The notes below the pieces were generated by a model. That model ran no database searches. It had not been told where the DNA came from and saw nothing but the letters and a program-made list of their open reading frames with translations. Shown piece after piece: positions 3,176 to 34,617 of a stretch of 39,617 nt of DNA (position 1 is the first letter of the stretch; every line of letters begins with the position of its first letter). Position numbers and translations under genes: made by a program. Origin of the DNA: a virus (Duplodnaviria > Heunggongvirae > Uroviricota > Caudoviricetes); the IMG/VR virus record IMGVR_UViG_2703718858_000001, positions 1-39,617 of that record. One strand, 5' to 3'.

Positions 3176-5338
3176 TTAAGCGCTGAAACCGCCGACTCTA
3201 ACTTTTAGCGTAGAGAGATCAACATTAACAGTTATGTTTAATACACCACTCCCCGCTGAAATAGAGAATAAGCGCCGTCCGCCTGACGTTCCGCCCCCCG
3301 CCGGTGGAGTGGTATCGAGTTCACCTGTGATCGATATTGAAATGGTACCCTCACGGTTAGCAACGAGTAGCTCTAAACATTCAGCCCAGGTGTTTTGTGC
3401 AGAAGACCAAGCATCGATAAGGATTCTCTGCGTCGTTCTGTTTGGTATTGCGATGGATTTGACTTCACCTGTATTTACCAGACCTTGAAAACGAGTTCCG
3501 TAATCTATCCAGCTAATGCTATAACCTGCATTTGCTGCAGGGTCTTGAGAGGTATACCAGGTCTTGGTTCTCACGCCAGTATGACCGATTGTCAGTAGAG
3601 GACGAGCAAATTGATCTCGATGAATGTATGCATTATCTCTGATCCCGTTGCTCTGCAGATCAATATCTGCAGCACGTGGATTAGGGAAAGTCGCTTTTCC
3701 ACCAACATCAAAAACATCATAATGATTTGCAACTGCAGGAATCCATCCGTTCCTGTCCAGATTTCTAAAGAAATCCTCGAAAGCCAGCCAGTATGATTGC
3801 TGATGACCTAAAAGGTTAGGGTGAACAGTCTGTATTTCAGGGGTCCGGTCAAATAATGCCGTTTCACCATATTTAGCAACAGCATCAAACCAGTATTTTT
3901 CCACATCGATAAGCACGCAACCCATTTCTACAGCGATTTTCCTGATCGCATCGTTTCCTCGAAGGAAGCGGACACCTGCTTGAATATTTACCCCATTCCA
4001 CTCAAACGTGACATTTGAGTTTGCGGCAGATGGTATAATGTTATTATCAGAGACTGGGGCCGGAGAAGATGAAGGCCATATTTGAGAAATTCCAGCCGGC
4101 ATGCTCCAGCTATATTCAGAAATATTCGGATGAGGTGTGGTTGTTAGCACAACATCCCCGCCGGCCTCCCTGACTAAATTAATAGCATTTCGAAGGCGCT
4201 GTTTAAATCCGTTTTCATTGAATGTTTGCCCGGCATTATATTGTGCGGTAGGAAAATCATTCATTCCATATATAAACAAAGCAATATCAGGATATATTCC
4301 TTCAGCAACAACTTCAGGCCATTGGTTAACAATAAAATTATTTATCGTTGAACCATTAACAGATTTGTTTGTGAAGTTAATGGGATAAATACGCTGCTTA
4401 TTTAGCGTATCGTTCATATACTCAAAAAATTTAGCAACTGGTGCCTGTGTTGCTGGATCAGGAAGCGTAGCACCAACCCCAACAGAAGAACCAAACCCAT
4501 AGAGTCGAAATAAGTTCTGATAGCCAGAAACCCCATGCCGATAAGCTGTTAATTTATTGACGAAATTTGGGAAAAGGGCCTGTGATGATCCAGACGCAGC
4601 ACGAATAGAAGCCTCTACCGTTCTTCCTGTTTCCGTAGCAACTAAGCCAGCACCGTCTTTTGATGCTAGCTTGATTGCCAAATCTGCCGTTTCAGTTTGC
4701 CCTGCAATCGGAACAGGATCCCCCTGGTCATTGAATCCAATCAGCATATTTGCTCTGGCTCGTACAGATGCCATGATTCCTACCTGACTTTCCGGAACTC
4801 GCAAAGTTCGCTGGAAAAGACCATCTGCATGATGAGTGCTGTCATTGTCTCCCGAGTCCACATAAGATTTTGTTGCTGCATCCTGTGCCTGTGACGGGTC
4901 ACGCAGATTACGAATGCGGTTGTTGAGTGCGTCGTAATAGTTCGCGATGAACGACGGCTTACGCAGCGCCAGGCGGAGAAAGCTGAAGCACTGCTGGATA
5001 AGCATGGTCAGCTTGTCGAACGCATCCTCATGTACCTCTGCGAAAAATTTCCCCTGGTTACGCAGATCAGTCTCCTGGGTAACAGGCAAGTCACGTGAGA
5101 TAGAGATTTGCCATCCGTTGGCCAGAGGTGACATCAACACAATGCTCCCACCTGAATAGCTTCCCGCCCCGGTAACGGAGTAATCGGTATCCAGAGTAAG
5201 TACCGTAATATTTTCGTTAAGGTCAGCAACCTGTACTGTCAGATCTGACTTCTTGAAAATACGAAACTTGTACGGGAAAGATGTGGTAACGCCGTTACCA
5301 GTGTATTCGTTGTGGTCAACTTCGGTTGAGACCGTCAT
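3176..5338 (-). CDS. Tailspike/tail fibre with T7 gp17-like N-terminal adaptor domain and SGNH-hydrolase-like central region
   Basis: N-terminus MTVSTEVDHNEYTGNGVTTSFPY...LDTDY resembles podovirus fibre attachment domain; GFGSS, GMND and HPN motifs resemble SGNH blocks I, III, V; GGAGA SD. Confidence 0.75.
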   Translation of the reverse strand: MTVSTEVDHNEYTGNGVTTSFPYKFRIFKKSDLTVQVADLNENITVLTLDTDYSVTGAGSYSGGSIVLMSPLANGWQISISRDLPVTQETDLRNQGKFFAEVHEDAFDKLTMLIQQCFSFLRLALRKPSFIANYYDALNNRIRNLRDPSQAQDAATKSYVDSGDNDSTHHADGLFQRTLRVPESQVGIMASVRARANMLIGFNDQGDPVPIAGQTETADLAIKLASKDGAGLVATETGRTVEASIRAASGSSQALFPNFVNKLTAYRHGVSGYQNLFRLYGFGSSVGVGATLPDPATQAPVAKFFEYMNDTLNKQRIYPINFTNKSVNGSTINNFIVNQWPEVVAEGIYPDIALFIYGMNDFPTAQYNAGQTFNENGFKQRLRNAINLVREAGGDVVLTTTPHPNISEYSWSMPAGISQIWPSSSPAPVSDNNIIPSAANSNVTFEWNGVNIQAGVRFLRGNDAIRKIAVEMGCVLIDVEKYWFDAVAKYGETALFDRTPEIQTVHPNLLGHQQSYWLAFEDFFRNLDRNGWIPAVANHYDVFDVGGKATFPNPRAADIDLQSNGIRDNAYIHRDQFARPLLTIGHTGVRTKTWYTSQDPAANAGYSISWIDYGTRFQGLVNTGEVKSIAIPNRTTQRILIDAWSSAQNTWAECLELLVANREGTISISITGELDTTPPAGGGTSGGRRLFSISAGSGVLNITVNVDLSTLKVRVGGFSA

Positions 5339-5441: not shown

Positions 5442-5458
5442 ATTACCTTTATGGTAAT
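5442..5458. promoter_or_regulatory. 17-bp palindromic operator ATTACC-TTTAT-GGTAAT
   Basis: Perfect inverted repeat; same motif recurs at OL, OR and other promoters in the window. Confidence 0.6.
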
Positions 5459-5496
5459 TTGCAAAACGTGCTGGATAGCAAACAAATTATTTGATA

Positions 5497-5512
5497 CTGT
5501 ATAAATATACAG
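5497..5512 (+). promoter_or_regulatory. LexA (SOS) box CTGTATAAATATACAG
   Basis: CTGT-N8-ACAG with AT-only core; flanks TA...TT extend the 20-mer match; ends 21 bp upstream of ATG 5534. Confidence 0.7.
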
Positions 5513-5533
5513 TTATTGCATGGAGAAGATAAG

Positions 5534-5791
5534 ATGCAGCGGTATCACTATCCACTGGAAGACGGATTTACCGAAAGGATTCACACGCCGGGAGGCGTCA
5601 GGTCACTGGTGGAGGGATCGCACTTGATGAAATTACTCCGGGATCTCGATAAGGATGGATTTAATGTCGATGGCCCACTTGCCGAACTGACTGCACTGAT
5701 TAACTACGTCACCAGCTCACAGATGTCTATGCAGGATCTGCAAACACATCTCGACTATTGTGCCGAACAATTACGAAAACAAACCCGGTAA
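5534..5791 (+). CDS. Small antirepressor-domain protein (paralog of Bro-N antirepressor C-terminus), putatively SOS-regulated
   Basis: ATG 5534 with GGAGAAG SD; 85 aa; aligns with C-terminal ~70 aa of 6940-7650 protein (IH.P.GV..L.E.S.LM.LL..L..DG..V.G..AELT...Y......D.QTH..Y). Confidence 0.6.
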   Translation: MQRYHYPLEDGFTERIHTPGGVRSLVEGSHLMKLLRDLDKDGFNVDGPLAELTALINYVTSSQMSMQDLQTHLDYCAEQLRKQTR

Positions 5792-5797
5792 ATTTAA

Positions 5798-5822
5798 AGG
5801 CCGCAAGAGCGGCCTATCGTTT
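5798..5822. terminator. Hairpin terminator between convergent genes
   Basis: AGGCCGC-AAGA-GCGGCCT stem-loop followed by T-rich tract. Confidence 0.5.
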
Positions 5823-6542
5823 CGCTTTGTGCTCATCCCAGCACGTTTTGCACCATGCCATTAAGCCGTCCGCATTTTGATTATTAGGGTAAAAGCTGGT
5901 TCGTTTTCTGCGGACATTACAAATTGGGCACCACTTCATATGGCGTGTATTCTTTGGGCCATCGAGACACCTTGCACACCACTTAGTCAATCCATCTGGA
6001 TTTTTTGACGATTTCCTGAATTTTTCATATGGAAGGTTTATTCTGCATCGCAAGCACTGCTTGCTACCACTTGAAACTCTGTTAGCTGATTCTTCTTTTG
6101 GCGGCGATACAGAAGGTATTCTTGCTGGCTCTGATACTGCCTGAGGTGCTTTTTTAGATGACTGAGACGATATGTCATCACCAGGGAATCTTCCATGATA
6201 TGCCGGACGCGTTGACACTCCAGGTGGAAGCTCAGCTGTAAACGGCTTTGGCTGAATCAGTTGCCTCTCTTTTGCTAACTCCTGCTGTTTATAATATGTC
6301 TGGATTACCGCACTATCATAAGCAGGAGGTGCGGAAATATCAGGCGCATTACCTCCAGTTTTTTGAAACTGAGTAGAGGTGTGTTCTATCACCTGTGTAC
6401 GATTAATCGTTATCTCCCCATCTTCGGTCTTTATCGTTTTGTTATGATTAACGACCGTACGATCAGAGATCTTAGTCTTGTTCTGGTTGATAACGTAAAT
6501 AATCACCGCAACCACACCAACAACTATCCAGAAAACTTCCAT
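5814..6542 (-). CDS. Membrane-anchored protein with C-terminal tandem zinc-ribbon (CxxC...WCxxC x2)
   Basis: N-terminal TM helix, Pro/Ser-rich linker, two repeats of a DGL-x2-WC-x2-C motif; GAGGAA SD; operator 6562-6578 just upstream. Confidence 0.65.
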   Translation of the reverse strand: MEVFWIVVGVVAVIIYVINQNKTKISDRTVVNHNKTIKTEDGEITINRTQVIEHTSTQFQKTGGNAPDISAPPAYDSAVIQTYYKQQELAKERQLIQPKPFTAELPPGVSTRPAYHGRFPGDDISSQSSKKAPQAVSEPARIPSVSPPKEESANRVSSGSKQCLRCRINLPYEKFRKSSKNPDGLTKWCARCLDGPKNTRHMKWCPICNVRRKRTSFYPNNQNADGLMAWCKTCWDEHKAKR

Positions 6543-6561
6543 TGCTTTTCCTCACAATAAC

Positions 6562-6578
6562 ATTACCTTAAAGGTAAT
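6562..6578. promoter_or_regulatory. Operator ATTACC-TTAAA-GGTAAT
   Basis: Perfect palindrome in divergent promoter region between 5814-6542 and ant. Confidence 0.6.
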
Positions 6579-6654
6579 ATCTTGCTTTCAGGTGATCAAG
6601 CGTTAAACGTAATCAACCAAATGCGGTTGATTTTAATATTTATCCGCGCTTATC

Positions 6655-6671
6655 ATTACCTTTGCGGTAAA
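6655..6671. promoter_or_regulatory. Operator ATTACC-TTTGC-GGTAAA
   Basis: One mismatch from the palindrome; second site of divergent region. Confidence 0.5.
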
Positions 6672-6689
6672 TTTACATCGCACTCCTCT

Positions 6690-6783
6690 TGTGCCATAGT
6701 AATCGGGCACTGGCAAAATCCAGTGCCGGGATTGGCGTCCCGGGTTACTAAGTGGCGCATACCACGCCAGACGTGGTTTTTTT
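6690..6783 (+). ncRNA. Candidate small RNA / structured leader (three stem-loops ending in intrinsic terminator)
   Basis: Consecutive hairpins plus ACCACG-CCAGA-CGTGGT followed by T7 at 6761-6783; contains CTAAGTGG identical to ant SD region and complementary to leader octamer 6849-6856. Confidence 0.3.
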
Positions 6784-6939
6784 ATGCGTTAAGCACAGCT
6801 ATATCCGAATTATGGTGGGCTGGGCAGGGGTCCGAAAGGACACCGGTACCACTTAGGCCGGCACGCCAACCTTGTCCAGTTCACCACCAGTAATTGGCGT
6901 TGCGGTGGTGATTAAAATCACTAAGTGGAGATAACCACC

Positions 6940-7650
6940 ATGGCTAATGCTCAAACTGCCATCTTCAAATTTGAATCTGTTAACCCTATCCGTTCCATCA
7001 TTATCGATGGCCAACCATGGTTTGTAGCCCAAGACGTTTGTAGTGCGCTGCGTATCCAAAACGTCACCCAAGCACTTGAAAAACTGGATGATGATGAAAG
7101 GTCTATGTTCAACATAGGGCATGAACATCGTGCAATTTTTGACAGCCGAGTAAAAGAGATCAACATCATCTCCGAGTCAGGCCTCTACACACTGATCCTC
7201 CGCTGCCGCGACGCAGTGACACCAGGCACTATCCCCTACCGCTTTCGTAAATGGGTTACAGGTGAGGTTCTTCCTCAGATCCGCCGCACCGGAAGTTACA
7301 TTAAAAACTCGCTCCCGCAGGAAGAACGCATAAAGATGGTTGCCGACCAGGTTGCAAACGCCACAGCATCAGCAGTGATGCAGGCGATGAAGATAGAGAA
7401 CAAAACCTACAGTGCCCCGCTGAAGCCCGGCTACCGCAGCCTGATTCATTCGCCGTCTGGTGTTCTCGGCCTGACGGAGAACTCACTGCTGATGAATTTG
7501 CTGAACCAGTTACAGGAAGACGGGCATGACGTATCGGGCGCAGCGGCGGAACTGACCACCATGTTCTGCTACATCGTCGGTGTGAGCAAATGCCTGCGTG
7601 ATATCCAGACGCACGCGGAGTACATCAACGACAAAGCAGGGTTCTTCTGA
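6940..7650 (+). CDS. Antirepressor, Bro-N domain protein with C-terminal domain shared with 5534-5791
   Basis: N-terminus FKFESVNPIRSIIIDGQPWFVAQDV...GLYTLILRCRD...FRKWVTGEVLPQIRRTGSY matches Bro-N pattern; ATG 6940 preferred over GTG 6925. Confidence 0.75.
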   Translation: MANAQTAIFKFESVNPIRSIIIDGQPWFVAQDVCSALRIQNVTQALEKLDDDERSMFNIGHEHRAIFDSRVKEINIISESGLYTLILRCRDAVTPGTIPYRFRKWVTGEVLPQIRRTGSYIKNSLPQEERIKMVADQVANATASAVMQAMKIENKTYSAPLKPGYRSLIHSPSGVLGLTENSLLMNLLNQLQEDGHDVSGAAAELTTMFCYIVGVSKCLRDIQTHAEYINDKAGFF

Positions 7651-7724
7651 CAGGCGGTGGCACAGGGATGTGCCTTTAAATAATTCTGTACAGATTGCAG
7701 GTGAATAGCTTACTATTACCTCAC

Positions 7725-7741
7725 GGGTGATCCATAGCGAT
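7725..7741. promoter_or_regulatory. Degenerate operator ATTACC-TCACG-GGTGAT
   Basis: One mismatch in right half-site; upstream of leader ORF and cargo gene. Confidence 0.35.
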
Positions 7742-7767
7742 TAGGCACCGATACAGGAGGAGCCCAC

Positions 7768-7800
7768 ATGAGAAAATTTGACGAGTACGAAGGCGTTTAA
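7768..7800 (+). CDS. 10-codon leader ORF (MRKFDEYEGV)
   Basis: Very strong SD CAGGAGGAG 5 nt upstream; stop 19 nt before terminator hairpin; attenuator-like arrangement. Confidence 0.3.
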   Translation: MRKFDEYEGV

Positions 7801-7819
7801 CATTCGGATAGTTTAATGA

Positions 7820-7842
7820 CGGGGCCATTAGGCCCCGTTTTC
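7820..7842 (+). terminator. Rho-independent terminator/attenuator
   Basis: CGGGGCC-ATTA-GGCCCCG stem followed by TTTTC; ends 7 nt before GGAG SD of next gene. Confidence 0.65.
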
Positions 7843-7859
7843 ATGTCTGGAGACAATTT

Positions 7860-8399
7860 GTGTTAAGTGAAGAAATGCAATTTGCCATGGCCGTGGCTCA
7901 AATAGTAAGTGCAGTCGCGGTTTCGCTTGGCTTGTTCATAGCTATCGCTACTATTATTTATAATGTAAATACAGCGAGAAAAGTACACACTTCAGTATTC
8001 CTTGGTGAAAGCAGGTTTGATGTAGATTATAAGAAAGGCCTATCTACTATGCGCCGCATTCACGAATCGAACAAATCATTCCGCTCTTATATGTATCCAA
8101 GCAATGGGCAGGCTGATCTTACGGATGAAGAAAAGACAGAGAAGAGAGAAATAATTTACTGTCTAGGTTTCTACGAACGCATGGCTGTGAGCGTGAAGCG
8201 GAAAACTTATGATGAGACCATGATTAAGGAAGTATTTTACAGCTCCGTTGTAAATAACTATCAGATTGCGCTACCTCTTATACAAGCCATTAGAGAAAAA
8301 GAAAACATAAACACATATTTTAAAGAATATGAATGGTTGGCCACACGATGGAAGGATTGTCCATTGAAGGATAAATCCCCGTGGTACAAGTTTTGGTAA
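7860..8399 (+). CDS. Low-GC cargo protein, N-terminal TM anchor plus ~150-aa cytoplasmic domain; function unknown (exclusion/defence candidate)
   Basis: Sampled GC 28-47% versus about 50% in flanks; GTG 7860 with GGAG SD (alternative ATG 7875); hydrophobic N-terminus. Confidence 0.6.
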   Translation: MLSEEMQFAMAVAQIVSAVAVSLGLFIAIATIIYNVNTARKVHTSVFLGESRFDVDYKKGLSTMRRIHESNKSFRSYMYPSNGQADLTDEEKTEKREIIYCLGFYERMAVSVKRKTYDETMIKEVFYSSVVNNYQIALPLIQAIREKENINTYFKEYEWLATRWKDCPLKDKSPWYKFW

Positions 8400-19445: not shown

Positions 19446-20053
19446 CAGGACAACCTCGCAATGGTAAACTCATCAACCGGTGGCTGTGGTTCCTGTGATT
19501 CATTCTGGCTATGCGAGCCAGCACTAAGAATCACGCGATTGTACATATTGAGGGCAAACGTACCGAGGTCTGCATTCCCAGTCAGCGCCATGTTAATAGC
19601 TGCCGCAAGACGCCAGGCCAACGCCTCCATAAAAATGGCATCAAACATGTTCACATCTGTAACGCGAGAGACATACTTGAGCCATGCCTGAGGCTGGTCT
19701 GTGTAGATCAACTTTCCTGTTCCGTTGGTGTCTGCACCAACTTCGTACTGAACGCGCATTGCTGCTGTTGGATTGCGTACACCAGGAAGCATAATTTCAG
19801 TAATGCGCAGACAATCTGACGGGTACTGGTACGCATATTCCCAGTCAGGCGGTTGATTGCTCGTATCTGCAAGCGCCACGCGTTTGGTAGCAAAGTTCCA
19901 GTCAAAATCAGAAAGCACAGCATCACGACAGGCCTCAAAGTGCAGCGAACATTCCCCCGCTTCCTTGCTGGCTTCCGTCAGGCTGTTAATGCTGCGGCTG
20001 TTGCCAATATTGGACAGCGCACGATTACAGATCTCTACTACAGAGGCCATCAC
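19445..20053 (-). CDS. Tail tubular protein A-like (adaptor)
   Basis: 202 aa versus T7 gp11 196 aa; synteny. Confidence 0.45.
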   Translation of the reverse strand: MMASVVEICNRALSNIGNSRSINSLTEASKEAGECSLHFEACRDAVLSDFDWNFATKRVALADTSNQPPDWEYAYQYPSDCLRITEIMLPGVRNPTAAMRVQYEVGADTNGTGKLIYTDQPQAWLKYVSRVTDVNMFDAIFMEALAWRLAAAINMALTGNADLGTFALNMYNRVILSAGSHSQNESQEPQPPVDEFTIARLS

Positions 20054-21207: not shown

Positions 21208-21258
21208 CTTCTTTCTCCATTAGTGGGTCTGTTACGACCCACAGGTTAATAACAGGCG

Positions 21259-25578: not shown

Positions 25579-25655
25579 GTGGCATTAGCTCAGTTGGACA
25601 GAGCAACCGCCTTCTAAGCGGTTGGTCGCAGGTTCGAATCCTGCATGCCACGCCA
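25579..25655 (+). tRNA. tRNA-Arg (anticodon UCU), phage-encoded
   Basis: Perfect 7-bp acceptor stem GTGGCAT/ATGCCAC, U8, D-arm GCTC..GAGC with GG, anticodon stem ACCGC/GCGGT, loop CTTCTAA, T-arm GCAGG-TTCGAAT-CCTGC, discriminator G and CCA. Confidence 0.9.
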
Positions 25656-27776: not shown

Positions 27777-28369
27777 TGATTGCCATCCTGACGTTCTTTG
27801 AGTCGCTTCCTGGCTGCTGCTATGCGATCAGCAATTGTCACATTCACATTAACATCCAGGCGTTCTTTGAATGCGTTGACGTCGACGTGCTTACCAATCA
27901 GTTCGAGGTTCTTCACCTTGTCAGGCCATTTAATTTTTTTGAGGATTGTCTCTATCGAATCCTCGTTCATGTTCATGATGGTCGATGACAGATCAAAGCC
28001 GCTAAGCGTAGTGCGCCAGATTTTCGGCCACTCGCGGATTGGCTTAAGGCTCCCATCGTCGTTGAGGATATCAATCACGTCCATCTGGTCGATCTCCACC
28101 AGGCGCATGAGAACGTAATCAGCACTGACGCGCATTCGTTTGTTGCGCTCCTCCATCAACTCGGCAATCCGTTTTTGAATGCGTTCATCGCGCATCATGA
28201 CACTGGCTTTAACTGCCGCTGTATTTGGGGAGAATCCTGCATTAATCGCTGCCTGAGTCTGGTTTTCAGGCGTTTTGATGTATGACTGGCAATAAGCCTC
28301 CTGCATTGCTGTTAGTGGCTTAAATTGCGTTGATTTGCGTTTATAGGTTTTAGGTTCAGCAGGCATCAT
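27773..28369 (-). CDS. Terminase small subunit
   Basis: Directly upstream of TerL; ATG 28369 chosen over TTG 28447. Confidence 0.65.
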   Translation of the reverse strand: MMPAEPKTYKRKSTQFKPLTAMQEAYCQSYIKTPENQTQAAINAGFSPNTAAVKASVMMRDERIQKRIAELMEERNKRMRVSADYVLMRLVEIDQMDVIDILNDDGSLKPIREWPKIWRTTLSGFDLSSTIMNMNEDSIETILKKIKWPDKVKNLELIGKHVDVNAFKERLDVNVNVTIADRIAAARKRLKERQDGNQ

Positions 28370-28376
28370 AACCACC

Positions 28377-28409
28377 GTGGTAATAGTTACCGTTGTGGTA
28401 ATAGTACCA
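28377..28409. repeat. Tandem 15-bp repeats GTGGTAATAGTTACC / GTGGTAATAGTACCA upstream of terminase
   Basis: Two direct copies 18 bp apart, each containing GGTAA-N3-TTACC (operator half-sites in opposite arrangement). Confidence 0.5.
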
Positions 28410-31432: not shown

Positions 31433-31449
31433 TTTACCCCTGAGGTAAT
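31433..31449. promoter_or_regulatory. Operator TTTACC-CCTGA-GGTAAT overlapping RBS of 31083-31430
   Basis: Palindrome family; spacer contains AGGGG SD on coding strand. Confidence 0.45.
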
Positions 31450-31494: not shown

Positions 31495-31511
31495 ATTACC
31501 TAGCAGGTAAT
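31495..31511. promoter_or_regulatory. Operator ATTACC-TAGCA-GGTAAT
   Basis: Perfect palindrome just downstream of terminator after P-like gene. Confidence 0.55.
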
Positions 31512-33778: not shown

Positions 33779-33843
33779 TTCACCCATAAGGTAACAAAAA
33801 TCAAGGATAGTTACCTATGAGGTGCATTTACCTGTTGGGTAAT
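33779..33843. promoter_or_regulatory. OR region: three operators (33779-33795, 33810-33826, 33827-33843)
   Basis: TTCACC-CATAA-GGTAAC, GTTACC-TATGA-GGTGCA, TTTACC-TGTTG-GGTAAT between divergent cro-like and repressor genes. Confidence 0.6.
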
Positions 33844-33897: not shown

Positions 33898-34482
33898 ATG
33901 AAAAGTATCCAGGACGTCCGCAGGCAAAATCTCAACGACTTGATCGACCGTGAATTCAATGGTGTTCAGACGCGGATGGCAGAAAAACTTGGAACTCAGG
34001 CAAATCTGGTAAACCGCTGGGCTCTTGGCAAGAAGGTTATCGGCGACCAGGTTGCGCGAAAAATTGAAGCTGCCGCCAATAAACCCCGTAACTGGCTTGA
34101 TATCGATCGCTCGCTTTCTCAGGAAGGTTTTCAGCCTGTCGGCCCAAGCGACATTGGTCAGCTGGCGGCTCACAACCTGGAACGCTGGATGAGCGAAAGC
34201 CGCGACCTTTCAACACAGGGAAAACTTCACCGCGCATCCGGCGTCGCCCAGGTGACAATCAGCCGCCTGTTAAACAATGAGGTCAGCGTTTCCATTTCCA
34301 CCCTGGAGAATGTTGCATCCGCATTCGGGCGTCACGGATATGAACTACTGATTCACCCGCACGACCCTGCGACTATCAACTATGACCGCTCGCGCTACGC
34401 ATTGTTACCCGAAACCGAGAAAGCAAAGATCGAAAGTTACATTGAATTTGTCATCAACCAGAACGAAAAAAACAAACAATAA
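33898..34482 (+). CDS. Immunity repressor, tandem HTH, no S24 autocleavage domain
   Basis: Two HTH-like segments; no Ser-Lys peptidase motifs; flanked by operator clusters and followed by terminator. Confidence 0.7.
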   Translation: MKSIQDVRRQNLNDLIDREFNGVQTRMAEKLGTQANLVNRWALGKKVIGDQVARKIEAAANKPRNWLDIDRSLSQEGFQPVGPSDIGQLAAHNLERWMSESRDLSTQGKLHRASGVAQVTISRLLNNEVSVSISTLENVASAFGRHGYELLIHPHDPATINYDRSRYALLPETEKAKIESYIEFVINQNEKNKQ

Positions 34483-34538: not shown

Positions 34539-34617
34539 ATTACCTAATGGGTAATTTTTTTAACTCATATCTATTGACATCAAACCAGATACGCATAATT
34601 ATTACCTCAACGGTAAC
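34539..34617 (+). promoter_or_regulatory. OL/PL region: operators 34539-34555 and 34601-34617 flanking -35 TTGACA (34574-34579)
   Basis: ATTACC-TAATG-GGTAAT and ATTACC-TCAAC-GGTAAC; second site overlaps the -10 region. Confidence 0.6.

Follow-up and report, generated by a model that had tools for sequence, protein, structure and literature searches.

The region described here occupies positions 5534–7650 of a 39,617-nt stretch of viral DNA (IMG/VR record IMGVR_UViG_2703718858_000001; this whole stretch is hereafter called the window), which is, judged by its sequence, a temperate epsilon15-like podovirus of the genus Uetakevirus. The region shows 91–98% identity to the Escherichia phages TL-2011b, HEMP4, phiV10 and phiv142-3, and it was matched in 534 of 5,426 complete genomes, with at least 80% of it covered in 108. 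Two genes on the plus strand delimit it. The gene ant1 (5534–5791, start ATG 5534) encodes a stand-alone protein of 85 amino acids, which is the orthologue of the antirepressor Ant of phage SPC32H, and ant2 (6940–7650) encodes a protein of 236 amino acids composed of a Bro-N domain (amino acids 17–112, nt 6988–7275) and an Ant domain (amino acids 155–231, nt 7402–7632). The leader of ant2 is preceded by two RNA genes, an isrK-like small RNA (sRNA) and a C4 antisense RNA. The prophage repressor Rep (194 amino acids), encoded by rep at 33898–34482 on the plus strand, is presumed to be targeted by both proteins. Thus, the window appears to carry two antirepressors built on one Rep-binding domain, which would be wired to two different control circuits.

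Ant1, Ant2 and the distribution of their shared domain

The first-pass annotation had claimed that the two proteins share a C-terminal domain, and the claim was borne out by alignment and homologue search. BLASTP aligned residues 4–75 of Ant1 with residues 157–228 of Ant2 without gaps (31/72 identical, 43%, E 1e-15), and the sequence blocks quoted in that annotation fall inside this alignment. The similarity does not depend on the pairwise comparison, as each protein matches PDB 5D50_E ("Anti-repressor protein") on its own, Ant1 through residues 2–84 (phmmer, E 9.9e-47) and Ant2 through residues 155–231 (E 1.2e-13). Both also match the small-Ant family PHROG 450 (E 1.5e-47 for Ant1 and 4.4e-36 for Ant2). 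By these matches, the two proteins are homologous to the crystallised Ant of 5D50. An alignment of six stand-alone and fused copies of the domain contains 20 invariant columns, and neither Pfam nor NCBIfam holds a model of it. A match of Ant1 to DUF724 was weak (E 0.0038, below the cut-off) and was dismissed as noise. The Bro-N head of Ant2 was recognised by Pfam PF02498 over residues 17–112 (E 9.6e-20, 71.5 bits against a cut-off of 25.6), and phage HEMP4 carries a protein 100% identical to Ant2. For the start of ant2, GTG 6925 was considered and disfavoured; ATG 6940 is the likely start codon, with GGAG at 6926–6929 ahead of it. No third copy of the Ant domain was detected within the window by tblastn.

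In the literature, SPC32H Ant is described as a LexA-controlled antirepressor, and the stand-alone protein, whose fold was crystallised together with Rep in PDB 5D50, is a proven Rep binder. Ant1 is 88% identical to SPC32H Ant at the protein level. It is preceded by a LexA box, TACTGTATAAATATACAGTT, at 5495–5514 on the plus strand, which has two mismatches to the consensus and a CTGT-N8-ACAG core at 5497–5512. At that stringency the box is unique in the window, where none is expected, and it aligns with a conserved counterpart ahead of ant in SPC32H. Other CTGT-N8-ACAG cores lie in the window only at 21229 and 25771, which is at chance level, and no second LexA box was found near ant2. The earlier description of the small protein as an SOS-boxed antirepressor therefore holds. 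Since in SPC32H this domain on its own acts as the antirepressor that binds Rep, it is most simply inferred that all of the fusions target Rep through their C-terminal domain.

The repressor itself belongs to the same pair of structures. Rep matches PDB 5D50_A (E 4e-42) and its C-terminal domain matches 5D4Z_A (E 4e-20), so that a cognate Rep of the 5D50_A type is present in the genome that carries ant1. The rep gene is flanked by operators of the form ATTACC-N5-GGTAAT at 33827, 34539 and 34601. In all of the 17 Escherichia coli phage records that encode this Rep, the protein is 98.5–100% identical.

The Ant domain is rare, and it is found behind several different heads. A profile search of 1.84 billion cluster representatives recovered it in only 65, either as a stand-alone protein of about 85–95 amino acids or as the C-terminus of proteins of 150–319 amino acids. 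The heads ahead of it are Bro-N, AntA, Rha and ORF6N among the representatives and P22_AR_N in TL-2011b. When the gene content of 87 sources was surveyed, two or three Ant-domain genes were found in 72. Fifty sources carry two such genes, the second with a Bro-N head, and 12 carry three, the extra one being a convergent P22_AR_N fusion as in TL-2011b. An AntA head takes the place of Bro-N in seven; three copies with AntA, Bro-N and P22_AR_N heads were detected in three, and two copies without a recognised head in two. A single copy without a recognised head occurs in 12 sources (two of these are the same SPC32H record), and phiV10 alone combines one intact copy with a Bro-N head, its Bro-N gene being frameshifted. 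Salmonella members, including SPC32H and epsilon15, have ant1 only, with virion genes directly after it, and the isrK-C4 cassette is carried by E. coli, Klebsiella and Enterobacter members. By this distribution, the ant2 cassette is an acquisition.

Several relatives show rearranged forms of these genes. The frameshift of phiV10 (4571–5250 of its sequence) lies inside the Ant domain, which tblastn finds in two frames, and the gene is annotated as p23 (194 amino acids) and p22 (29 amino acids); phiV10 may therefore lack a functional Ant2. Two proteins of 84 amino acids each, P0072 and P0090, are natural chimeras that resemble ant1 in the N-terminal half and ant2 in the C-terminal half. Such proteins would be the expected product of recombination across the DGHDVSGAAAE stretch with deletion of the isrK-C4-Bro-N segment, and their existence suggests that the halves of the domain are interchangeable. 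The P22_AR_N third gene, present in 15 of the 87 sources and absent from the window, lies in TL-2011b at 7277–8221 on the minus strand, convergent with ant2, and its Ant domain is 96% identical to that of ant2. No second isrK or C4 was found at this TL-2011b locus with the Rfam models.

The isrK and C4 RNAs in front of ant2

The isrK-like sRNA was located at 6707–6783 on the plus strand (Rfam RF01394, 67.7 bits against a gathering threshold of 50), and it ends in an intrinsic terminator with a stem at 6761–6777 followed by a T-run. The C4 antisense RNA follows at 6808–6891 on the same strand (RF01695, 60.9 bits against a gathering threshold of 45) and folds into the structure of its Rfam family. 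In four relatives C4 scores 66–78 bits, and the Bro-N genes of TL-2011b, phiV10 and two Klebsiella phages likewise have isrK and C4 ahead of them.

The C4 RNA exposes two short elements, both of which have complements on either side of it. The element b' (CCACUUAG, 6849–6856) forms an exposed loop, and a' (ACGCCAA, 6863–6869) is single-stranded. Upstream, inside isrK, the complements of a' and b' lie at 6732–6738 (a1, in a hairpin loop) and 6748–6755 (b1), and could act as decoy sites. Downstream, the leader of ant2 holds a C4 target at 6894–6928, consisting of a2 (TTGGCGT, 6894–6900) and b2 (CTAAGTGG, 6921–6928). All of these elements are on the plus strand. The loop b' is exactly complementary to b1 and to b2 over 8 nt each, and a' to a1 and to a2 over 7 nt each; b2 overlaps the Shine-Dalgarno sequence GGAG of ant2 at 6926–6929. 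Thus C4 is predicted to block the translation of ant2. As the terminator and C4 stand between the promoter and ant2, derepression of the promoter alone would not yield protein. The only open reading frame in the stretch from C4 to ant2 has 14 codons (6812–6856), and its stop lies 84 nt before ATG 6940. Its ATG at 6812 is in the position equivalent to orf45 of Gifsy-1, 106 nt from the 5' end of isrK, and the frame closes after the 14 codons. The 3' strand of the basal stem of C4 (TCACCACC, 6881–6888) can pair alternatively with GGTGGTGA (6904–6911). The resulting hairpin (6881–6911) shows a2 in its loop, both of its strands are invariant in five relatives, and it may represent another fold of the transcript before processing.

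Comparison among relatives gives strong evidence that the C4 pairings are functional. In a five-way alignment of relatives the a and b elements change together, and the sample was enlarged with 80 further loci from IMG/VR, which gave 77 C4 copies across all loci. Three a' alleles (ACGCCAA, AGACCAA and GTCTCAA) and five b' alleles (CCACTTAG, CCTTTTAG, CCTTTGTAG, CCGTTTAG and CCTACTAG) were found, in at least seven combinations. Despite this variation, a' is matched by an exact complement at a2 in 77/77 copies and at a1 in 76/77, b' is so matched at b2 in 73/77, and b1 pairs with b' either exactly or through one G-U pair. It is this three-way compensated variation that argues for function. The alleles have diversified while Rep has not. 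The Rep proteins of phiV10 and TL-2011b are 100% and 98.5% identical to that of the window, respectively, and the b' allele of each differs from the window's (that of TL-2011b is CCUUUUAG). Diversification of C4 under an invariant Rep suggests that C4 acts in trans in lysogens, in which case the promoter of isrK, here called PisrK, is probably active there. Between the window and TL-2011b, the differing patch within 6700–7170 spans b1, the b' loop of C4, b2 and approximately the first 75 codons of Bro-N, and the rest of the ant2 protein is identical, so that the C4 specificity elements and the N-terminus of Bro-N differ together.

Rep-type operators, promoters and neighbouring genes

The first-pass annotation had placed the Bro-N gene behind two palindromic operators of the prophage repressor and had taken it to be repressed from them. 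Membership of both palindromes in the repressor-operator family was confirmed. The family ATTACC-N5-GGTAAT has 16 sites in the window against 1.0 expected, a number reached in none of 100 shuffles, other members flank rep, and operators of this family occupy corresponding positions in SPC32H. The assignment of the two sites to the Bro-N gene was upheld in part. The perfect palindrome at 6562–6578 (ATTACCTTAAAGGTAAT) lies ahead of the leftward 242-amino-acid gene, 20 bp upstream of its start codon. It was found only together with this gene, in the window and TL-2011b; phiV10 and the Klebsiella phages lack the operator, which therefore probably serves the 242-amino-acid gene. The site at 6655–6671 (ATTACCTTTGCGGTAAA) is conserved upstream of the cassette. 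Its distance to the 5' end of isrK is 52 bp in all but one of the 55 loci in which the two were located (54 of 55), and 49 bp in the remaining one. No Rep-type operator was found at the homologous cassette promoter in Stx, Hafnia and Salmonella phages, for which Stx phage PA28, Hafnia phage yong2 and Salmonella phage 118970_sal3 were used in the comparison of promoter regions. A lineage-specific operator at a fixed spacing suggests that a Rep input at PisrK has been selected.

PisrK was predicted at 6672–6700 on the plus strand (TTTACA, a 17-nt spacer and (TG)CCATAGT), with a predicted start at the 5' end of isrK (6707), and its -10 region is conserved in relatives. The operator at 6655–6671 ends one base before the -35 hexamer (6672–6677), with its centre at about -44, and does not overlap the predicted core promoter. 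At the predicted PL/PR-like early promoters (31517–31490 and 34574–34602), in contrast, an operator lies inside the core promoter: that at 31495–31511 fills the spacer and that at 34601–34617 covers -10/+1. Each has a partner 62 bp away, 31433–31449 at the leftward early promoter and 34539–34555 beside rep. Since the operator abuts the -35 hexamer without covering it, repression is not the sole reading, and the geometry would fit an activator as well as a repressor. The earlier claim that the prophage repressor represses the Bro-N gene thus keeps its conserved operator, and activation is a further possible reading. In P1 (Op51) and N15 (CB at promoter Pa) the main repressor likewise acts at the promoter of the ant operon, which speaks for the relay discussed below and, for P1, is a feature in common with the window. 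The two operators upstream of isrK are 93 bp apart. Spacings of 62 and 93 bp are near whole helical turns, which fits a looping Rep tetramer, and a third arrangement is a pair only 18 bp apart (28368–28384 and 28386–28402).

A further perfect operator lies in the intergenic region between the tailspike gene and ant1 (5442–5458), 53 bp upstream of the LexA box, and is conserved in the equivalent position in SPC32H, Klebsiella phage ST11-OXA245phi3.2 and Enterobacter phage Tyrion. In four relatives at the level of genera the operator lies about 50 bp upstream of the LexA box, for instance at 20012–20028 in SPC32H and at 4905–4921 in locus L005. This site may allow Rep to act on ant1 as well, which would close a direct positive feedback, or on the tailspike gene, which is divergent. 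No convincing -35 and -10 hexamers were seen by eye or by scan for ant1 or for the leftward 242-amino-acid gene.

The latter gene (5814–6542, minus strand) lies between ant1 and the RNA cassette and appears to be cargo. Its product belongs to PHROG 6762 (E 2.8e-150), a family of unknown function, and shows a hydrophobic segment in its N-terminal part and Cys-rich repeats in its C-terminal part, with weak matches to Stc1, endonuclease VII and Lar-like zinc-ribbon models. The gene is absent in phiV10 and the Klebsiella relatives, and absent or degraded in relatives; it is outside the antirepressor logic. Just downstream of ant2, a Rep-type operator with one mismatch (7715–7731) precedes a DUF4760 gene (7860–8399, 179 amino acids), and Rep operators seem to recur throughout the accessory region that separates ant1 from the virion genes. 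Elsewhere in the window, a tRNA gene lies at 25579–25652 (73 bits to the Rfam tRNA model), and a tRNA-Arg is annotated at the corresponding place in SPC32H.

Proposed secondary immunity and competing explanations

We consider it probable, on the whole, that ant2 is a secondary-immunity (anti-immunity) antirepressor in a cassette of the P1-immI/Gifsy-1-isrK type, which works in parallel with the SOS-triggered ant1. In the proposed mechanism, Rep would not cleave itself and would be disabled by protein antirepressors. The bare domain behind the LexA box, ant1, would be the trigger of SOS induction, as in SPC32H. In the cassette, the order would be Rep operator, PisrK, isrK (a1, b1 and terminator), C4 (a' and b'), leader (a2 and b2) and ant2, so that ant2 would be reached by read-through transcripts only, and C4 would be cut from the same transcript. 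Pairing of a' and b' with a2 and b2 would cover the ribosome-binding site and keep Ant2 off in the lysogen. An ant2 brought in by a superinfecting phage would likewise be silenced by the resident C4 if the alleles agree. A relative that carries another a'/b' allele would, on superinfection, escape C4, make Ant2 and inactivate the common Rep. This superinfection phenotype is proposed by analogy, and selection for escape from the resident C4 would explain the diversity of the alleles.

Some observations weigh against this proposal. Binding of Rep by Ant2 is deduced from a domain only about 40% identical to ant1. Inspection of the window found neither an icd-type open reading frame coupled to ant nor a coupled one of the orf45 type, although such upstream frames mediate control in P1 and Gifsy-1, respectively. 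The conserved, lineage-specific operator at PisrK represents a Rep input that a purely parallel model leaves unexplained. Finally, in the Gifsy-1 model IsrK activates translation by way of the mRNA, and repression of the C4 type was not demonstrated there (PMC4825925).

The first-pass annotation had instead proposed a two-stage relay, in which release of LexA makes Ant1, Ant1 inactivates Rep, PisrK is derepressed and Ant2 then locks induction by positive feedback. Its shared domain, its SOS box and its conserved operator all stood, the operator at a fixed 52 bp and confined to the epsilon15-like versions of the cassette. The annotation overlooked the isrK/C4 layer, which leaves a terminator and C4 between promoter and protein, and the operator it relied on abuts the -35 hexamer, where a centre at about -44 would suit an activator too. 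An RNA-aware version of the relay is possible, in which a burst of terminated isrK, carrying a1 and b1, soaks up C4 and frees the ribosome-binding site of ant2. The perfect copies of both C4 target sites inside isrK could titrate C4 in this way, and in Gifsy-1 the translation of the antirepressor increases 139-fold when isrK is provided in trans (PMC4825925). Nevertheless, compensated C4 alleles under an invariant Rep imply that C4 is already present in trans in lysogens, and transcription of the Gifsy-1 homologues, IsrK and STnc1160, is high under every lysogenic condition examined. Moreover, the Salmonella relatives have no ant2 and depend on ant1 only, which is the SPC32H antirepressor of the literature. 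The relay is therefore possible and not favoured, and we regard it as unlikely. Another alternative, which we likewise regard as rather unlikely, is that ant2 is an SOS-independent input to induction that answers to a physiological signal such as stationary phase, low Mg2+ or oxidative stress, as was proposed for IsrK and AnrP of Gifsy-1. A signal would lift the level of isrK or read-through of its terminator, and Ant2 would then induce the prophage without DNA damage. The isrK homologue of the cassette scores above the Rfam threshold. In Gifsy-1, expression of AnrP induces the prophage, IsrK rises in stationary phase and low Mg2+, and a strain without the isrK promoter releases no phage in stationary phase in minimal medium (PMC4825925). 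However, the coupling element orf45, which is central in Gifsy-1, is missing here, its place being held only by the 14-codon frame, and the diversification of C4 and its targets among phages with identical Rep is left unexplained.

A broader reading, which is rather speculative and which we rate as quite unlikely, takes the Ant domain as a portable Rep-specific "warhead" run in parallel behind different sensors: bare under LexA, fused to Bro-N or AntA under isrK/C4, and as the P22_AR_N third gene in some relatives. In it, isrK would be a C4 sponge, and through a Rep-gated burst of isrK the cassette, otherwise a silent determinant of immunity, would become a latch with positive feedback when the prophage is induced. 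If true, this reading would unite the relay with heteroimmunity of the P1 type in one RNA circuit and would recast Gifsy-1 IsrK as an anti-antisense RNA. Very improbable, by comparison, is that the Bro-N protein is no antirepressor of the resident Rep at all, and serves instead in DNA-binding regulation, exclusion or defence, with no more than an Ant-like oligomerisation domain retained. Baculovirus BRO proteins are reported in published work to bind DNA, and the Ant domain of ant2 has diverged from ant1 to the extent given above. On the other side, the domain family is small, its stand-alone form is the proven Rep binder, natural ant1/ant2 chimeras exist, and the same C-terminus is common to five interchangeable heads of "antirepressor type". 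The gene is also under control of the C4 type, which in P1/P7 is dedicated to antirepressors. A search with PADLOC gave no match for ant1, ant2, the 242-amino-acid protein or the DUF4760 protein, and the exclusion factor that the earlier annotation had offered as an alternative is thus unsupported.

The proposed parallel wiring for secondary immunity can be compared with several known systems. The Rep/Ant switch of SPC32H (Kim and Ryu, 2013; Kim et al., 2016; PDB 5D50 and 5D4Z) is alike in genus, in Ant, in a Rep of the 5D50 type and in a common operator family, with the LexA box and an upstream operator at the same positions before ant. It differs in having only the small Ant, to which the window adds an RNA-controlled Bro-N fusion with the same domain, and the two Rep proteins are only about 42% identical. 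In P1 and P7, heteroimmunity is ascribed in the literature to c4 pairing at the ribosome-binding site of ant, by which antirepressor synthesis is blocked. The immI locus (Citron and Schuster, 1990) has a C4 of the same Rfam family, the same layout of a1b1, a'b' and a2b2 with the downstream targets at the ribosome-binding site, and a'/b' alleles that vary while the main repressor is common to both phages, on which their heteroimmunity is based. In contrast to immI, b2 of the window covers the Shine-Dalgarno sequence of the antirepressor itself in place of an arrangement with icd, and a1 and b1 lie on isrK, an sRNA of its own that ends in a terminator. Here the antirepressor has Bro-N fused to a C-terminus that shares homology with the SOS antirepressor of the same phage, and the phage is a podovirus, in contrast to the P1-like myovirus.

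Phage N15, whose small RNA reportedly acts by transcription termination, differs from the window in phage type, and its AntC and immA proteins are not reported to share a domain. It is alike in having two antirepressor loci, of which AntC, in the SOS regulon, starts induction, and an immA operon under a processed small RNA (Mardanov and Ravin, 2007; Ravin et al., 1999). Translation of AnrP, the antirepressor that induces Gifsy-1, is under the control of the isrK operon of that prophage (Hershko-Shalev et al., 2016; PMC4825925). The Gifsy-1 arrangement isrK-orf45-anrP-isrJ likewise has isrK with a leaky terminator, then the C4-like processed RNA STnc1160 and an antirepressor gene, and Gifsy-1 also has a separate small antirepressor under LexA control, GfoA. 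It differs in that IsrK is modelled as an activator of the mRNA and not as an a1/b1 decoy for C4. The APSE phages of Hamiltonella have c4, isrK and an adjacent Bro-N gene, and their a'/b' elements match a region upstream of Bro-N; there, no SOS-controlled paralogue sharing the C-terminal domain, no repressor operator and no allele survey were described (Rouil et al., 2020; PMC7313666). The isrK-C4 cassette is widespread; at the DNA level, that of the window matches Stx phages, APSE-2 and Hafnia, Yersinia and Salmonella phages. Iyer, Koonin and Aravind (2002) reportedly described interchangeable Bro-N, KilA-N, Rha, AntA and ORF6N heads with variable C-terminal modules. Unlike such domain-shuffled regulators, the C-terminal module of the window also exists alone as a crystallised repressor-binding protein, which allows a concrete function to be assigned to the C-terminal half of the fusions.

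Each component of this locus has a published precedent, in SPC32H Rep/Ant, P1/P7 immI, Gifsy-1 isrK and N15, and current understanding is not overturned. In the literature searched, we found no description of SOS-type and immI-type antirepressors of one phage that share a crystallised Rep-binding domain, of an Ant domain shuffled among five heads (the SPC32H papers of 2013 and 2016 may already mention fusions), or of a podovirus genus with P1-like diversification of C4 alleles at a fixed Rep. The finding would assign Rep binding to the C-terminal half of Bro-N, AntA, Rha, P22_AR_N and ORF6N "antirepressors", for which that name is otherwise an annotation label. As the bare domain is a working SOS antirepressor, the N-terminal heads appear to be dispensable for the core activity. 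It also suggests that a common group of E. coli prophages has secondary immunity in the style of P1/P7, with specificity seemingly residing in at least seven a'/b' combinations. If true, this would affect predictions of prophage superinfection and cross-induction, including those for prophages in O157 and O103 strains.

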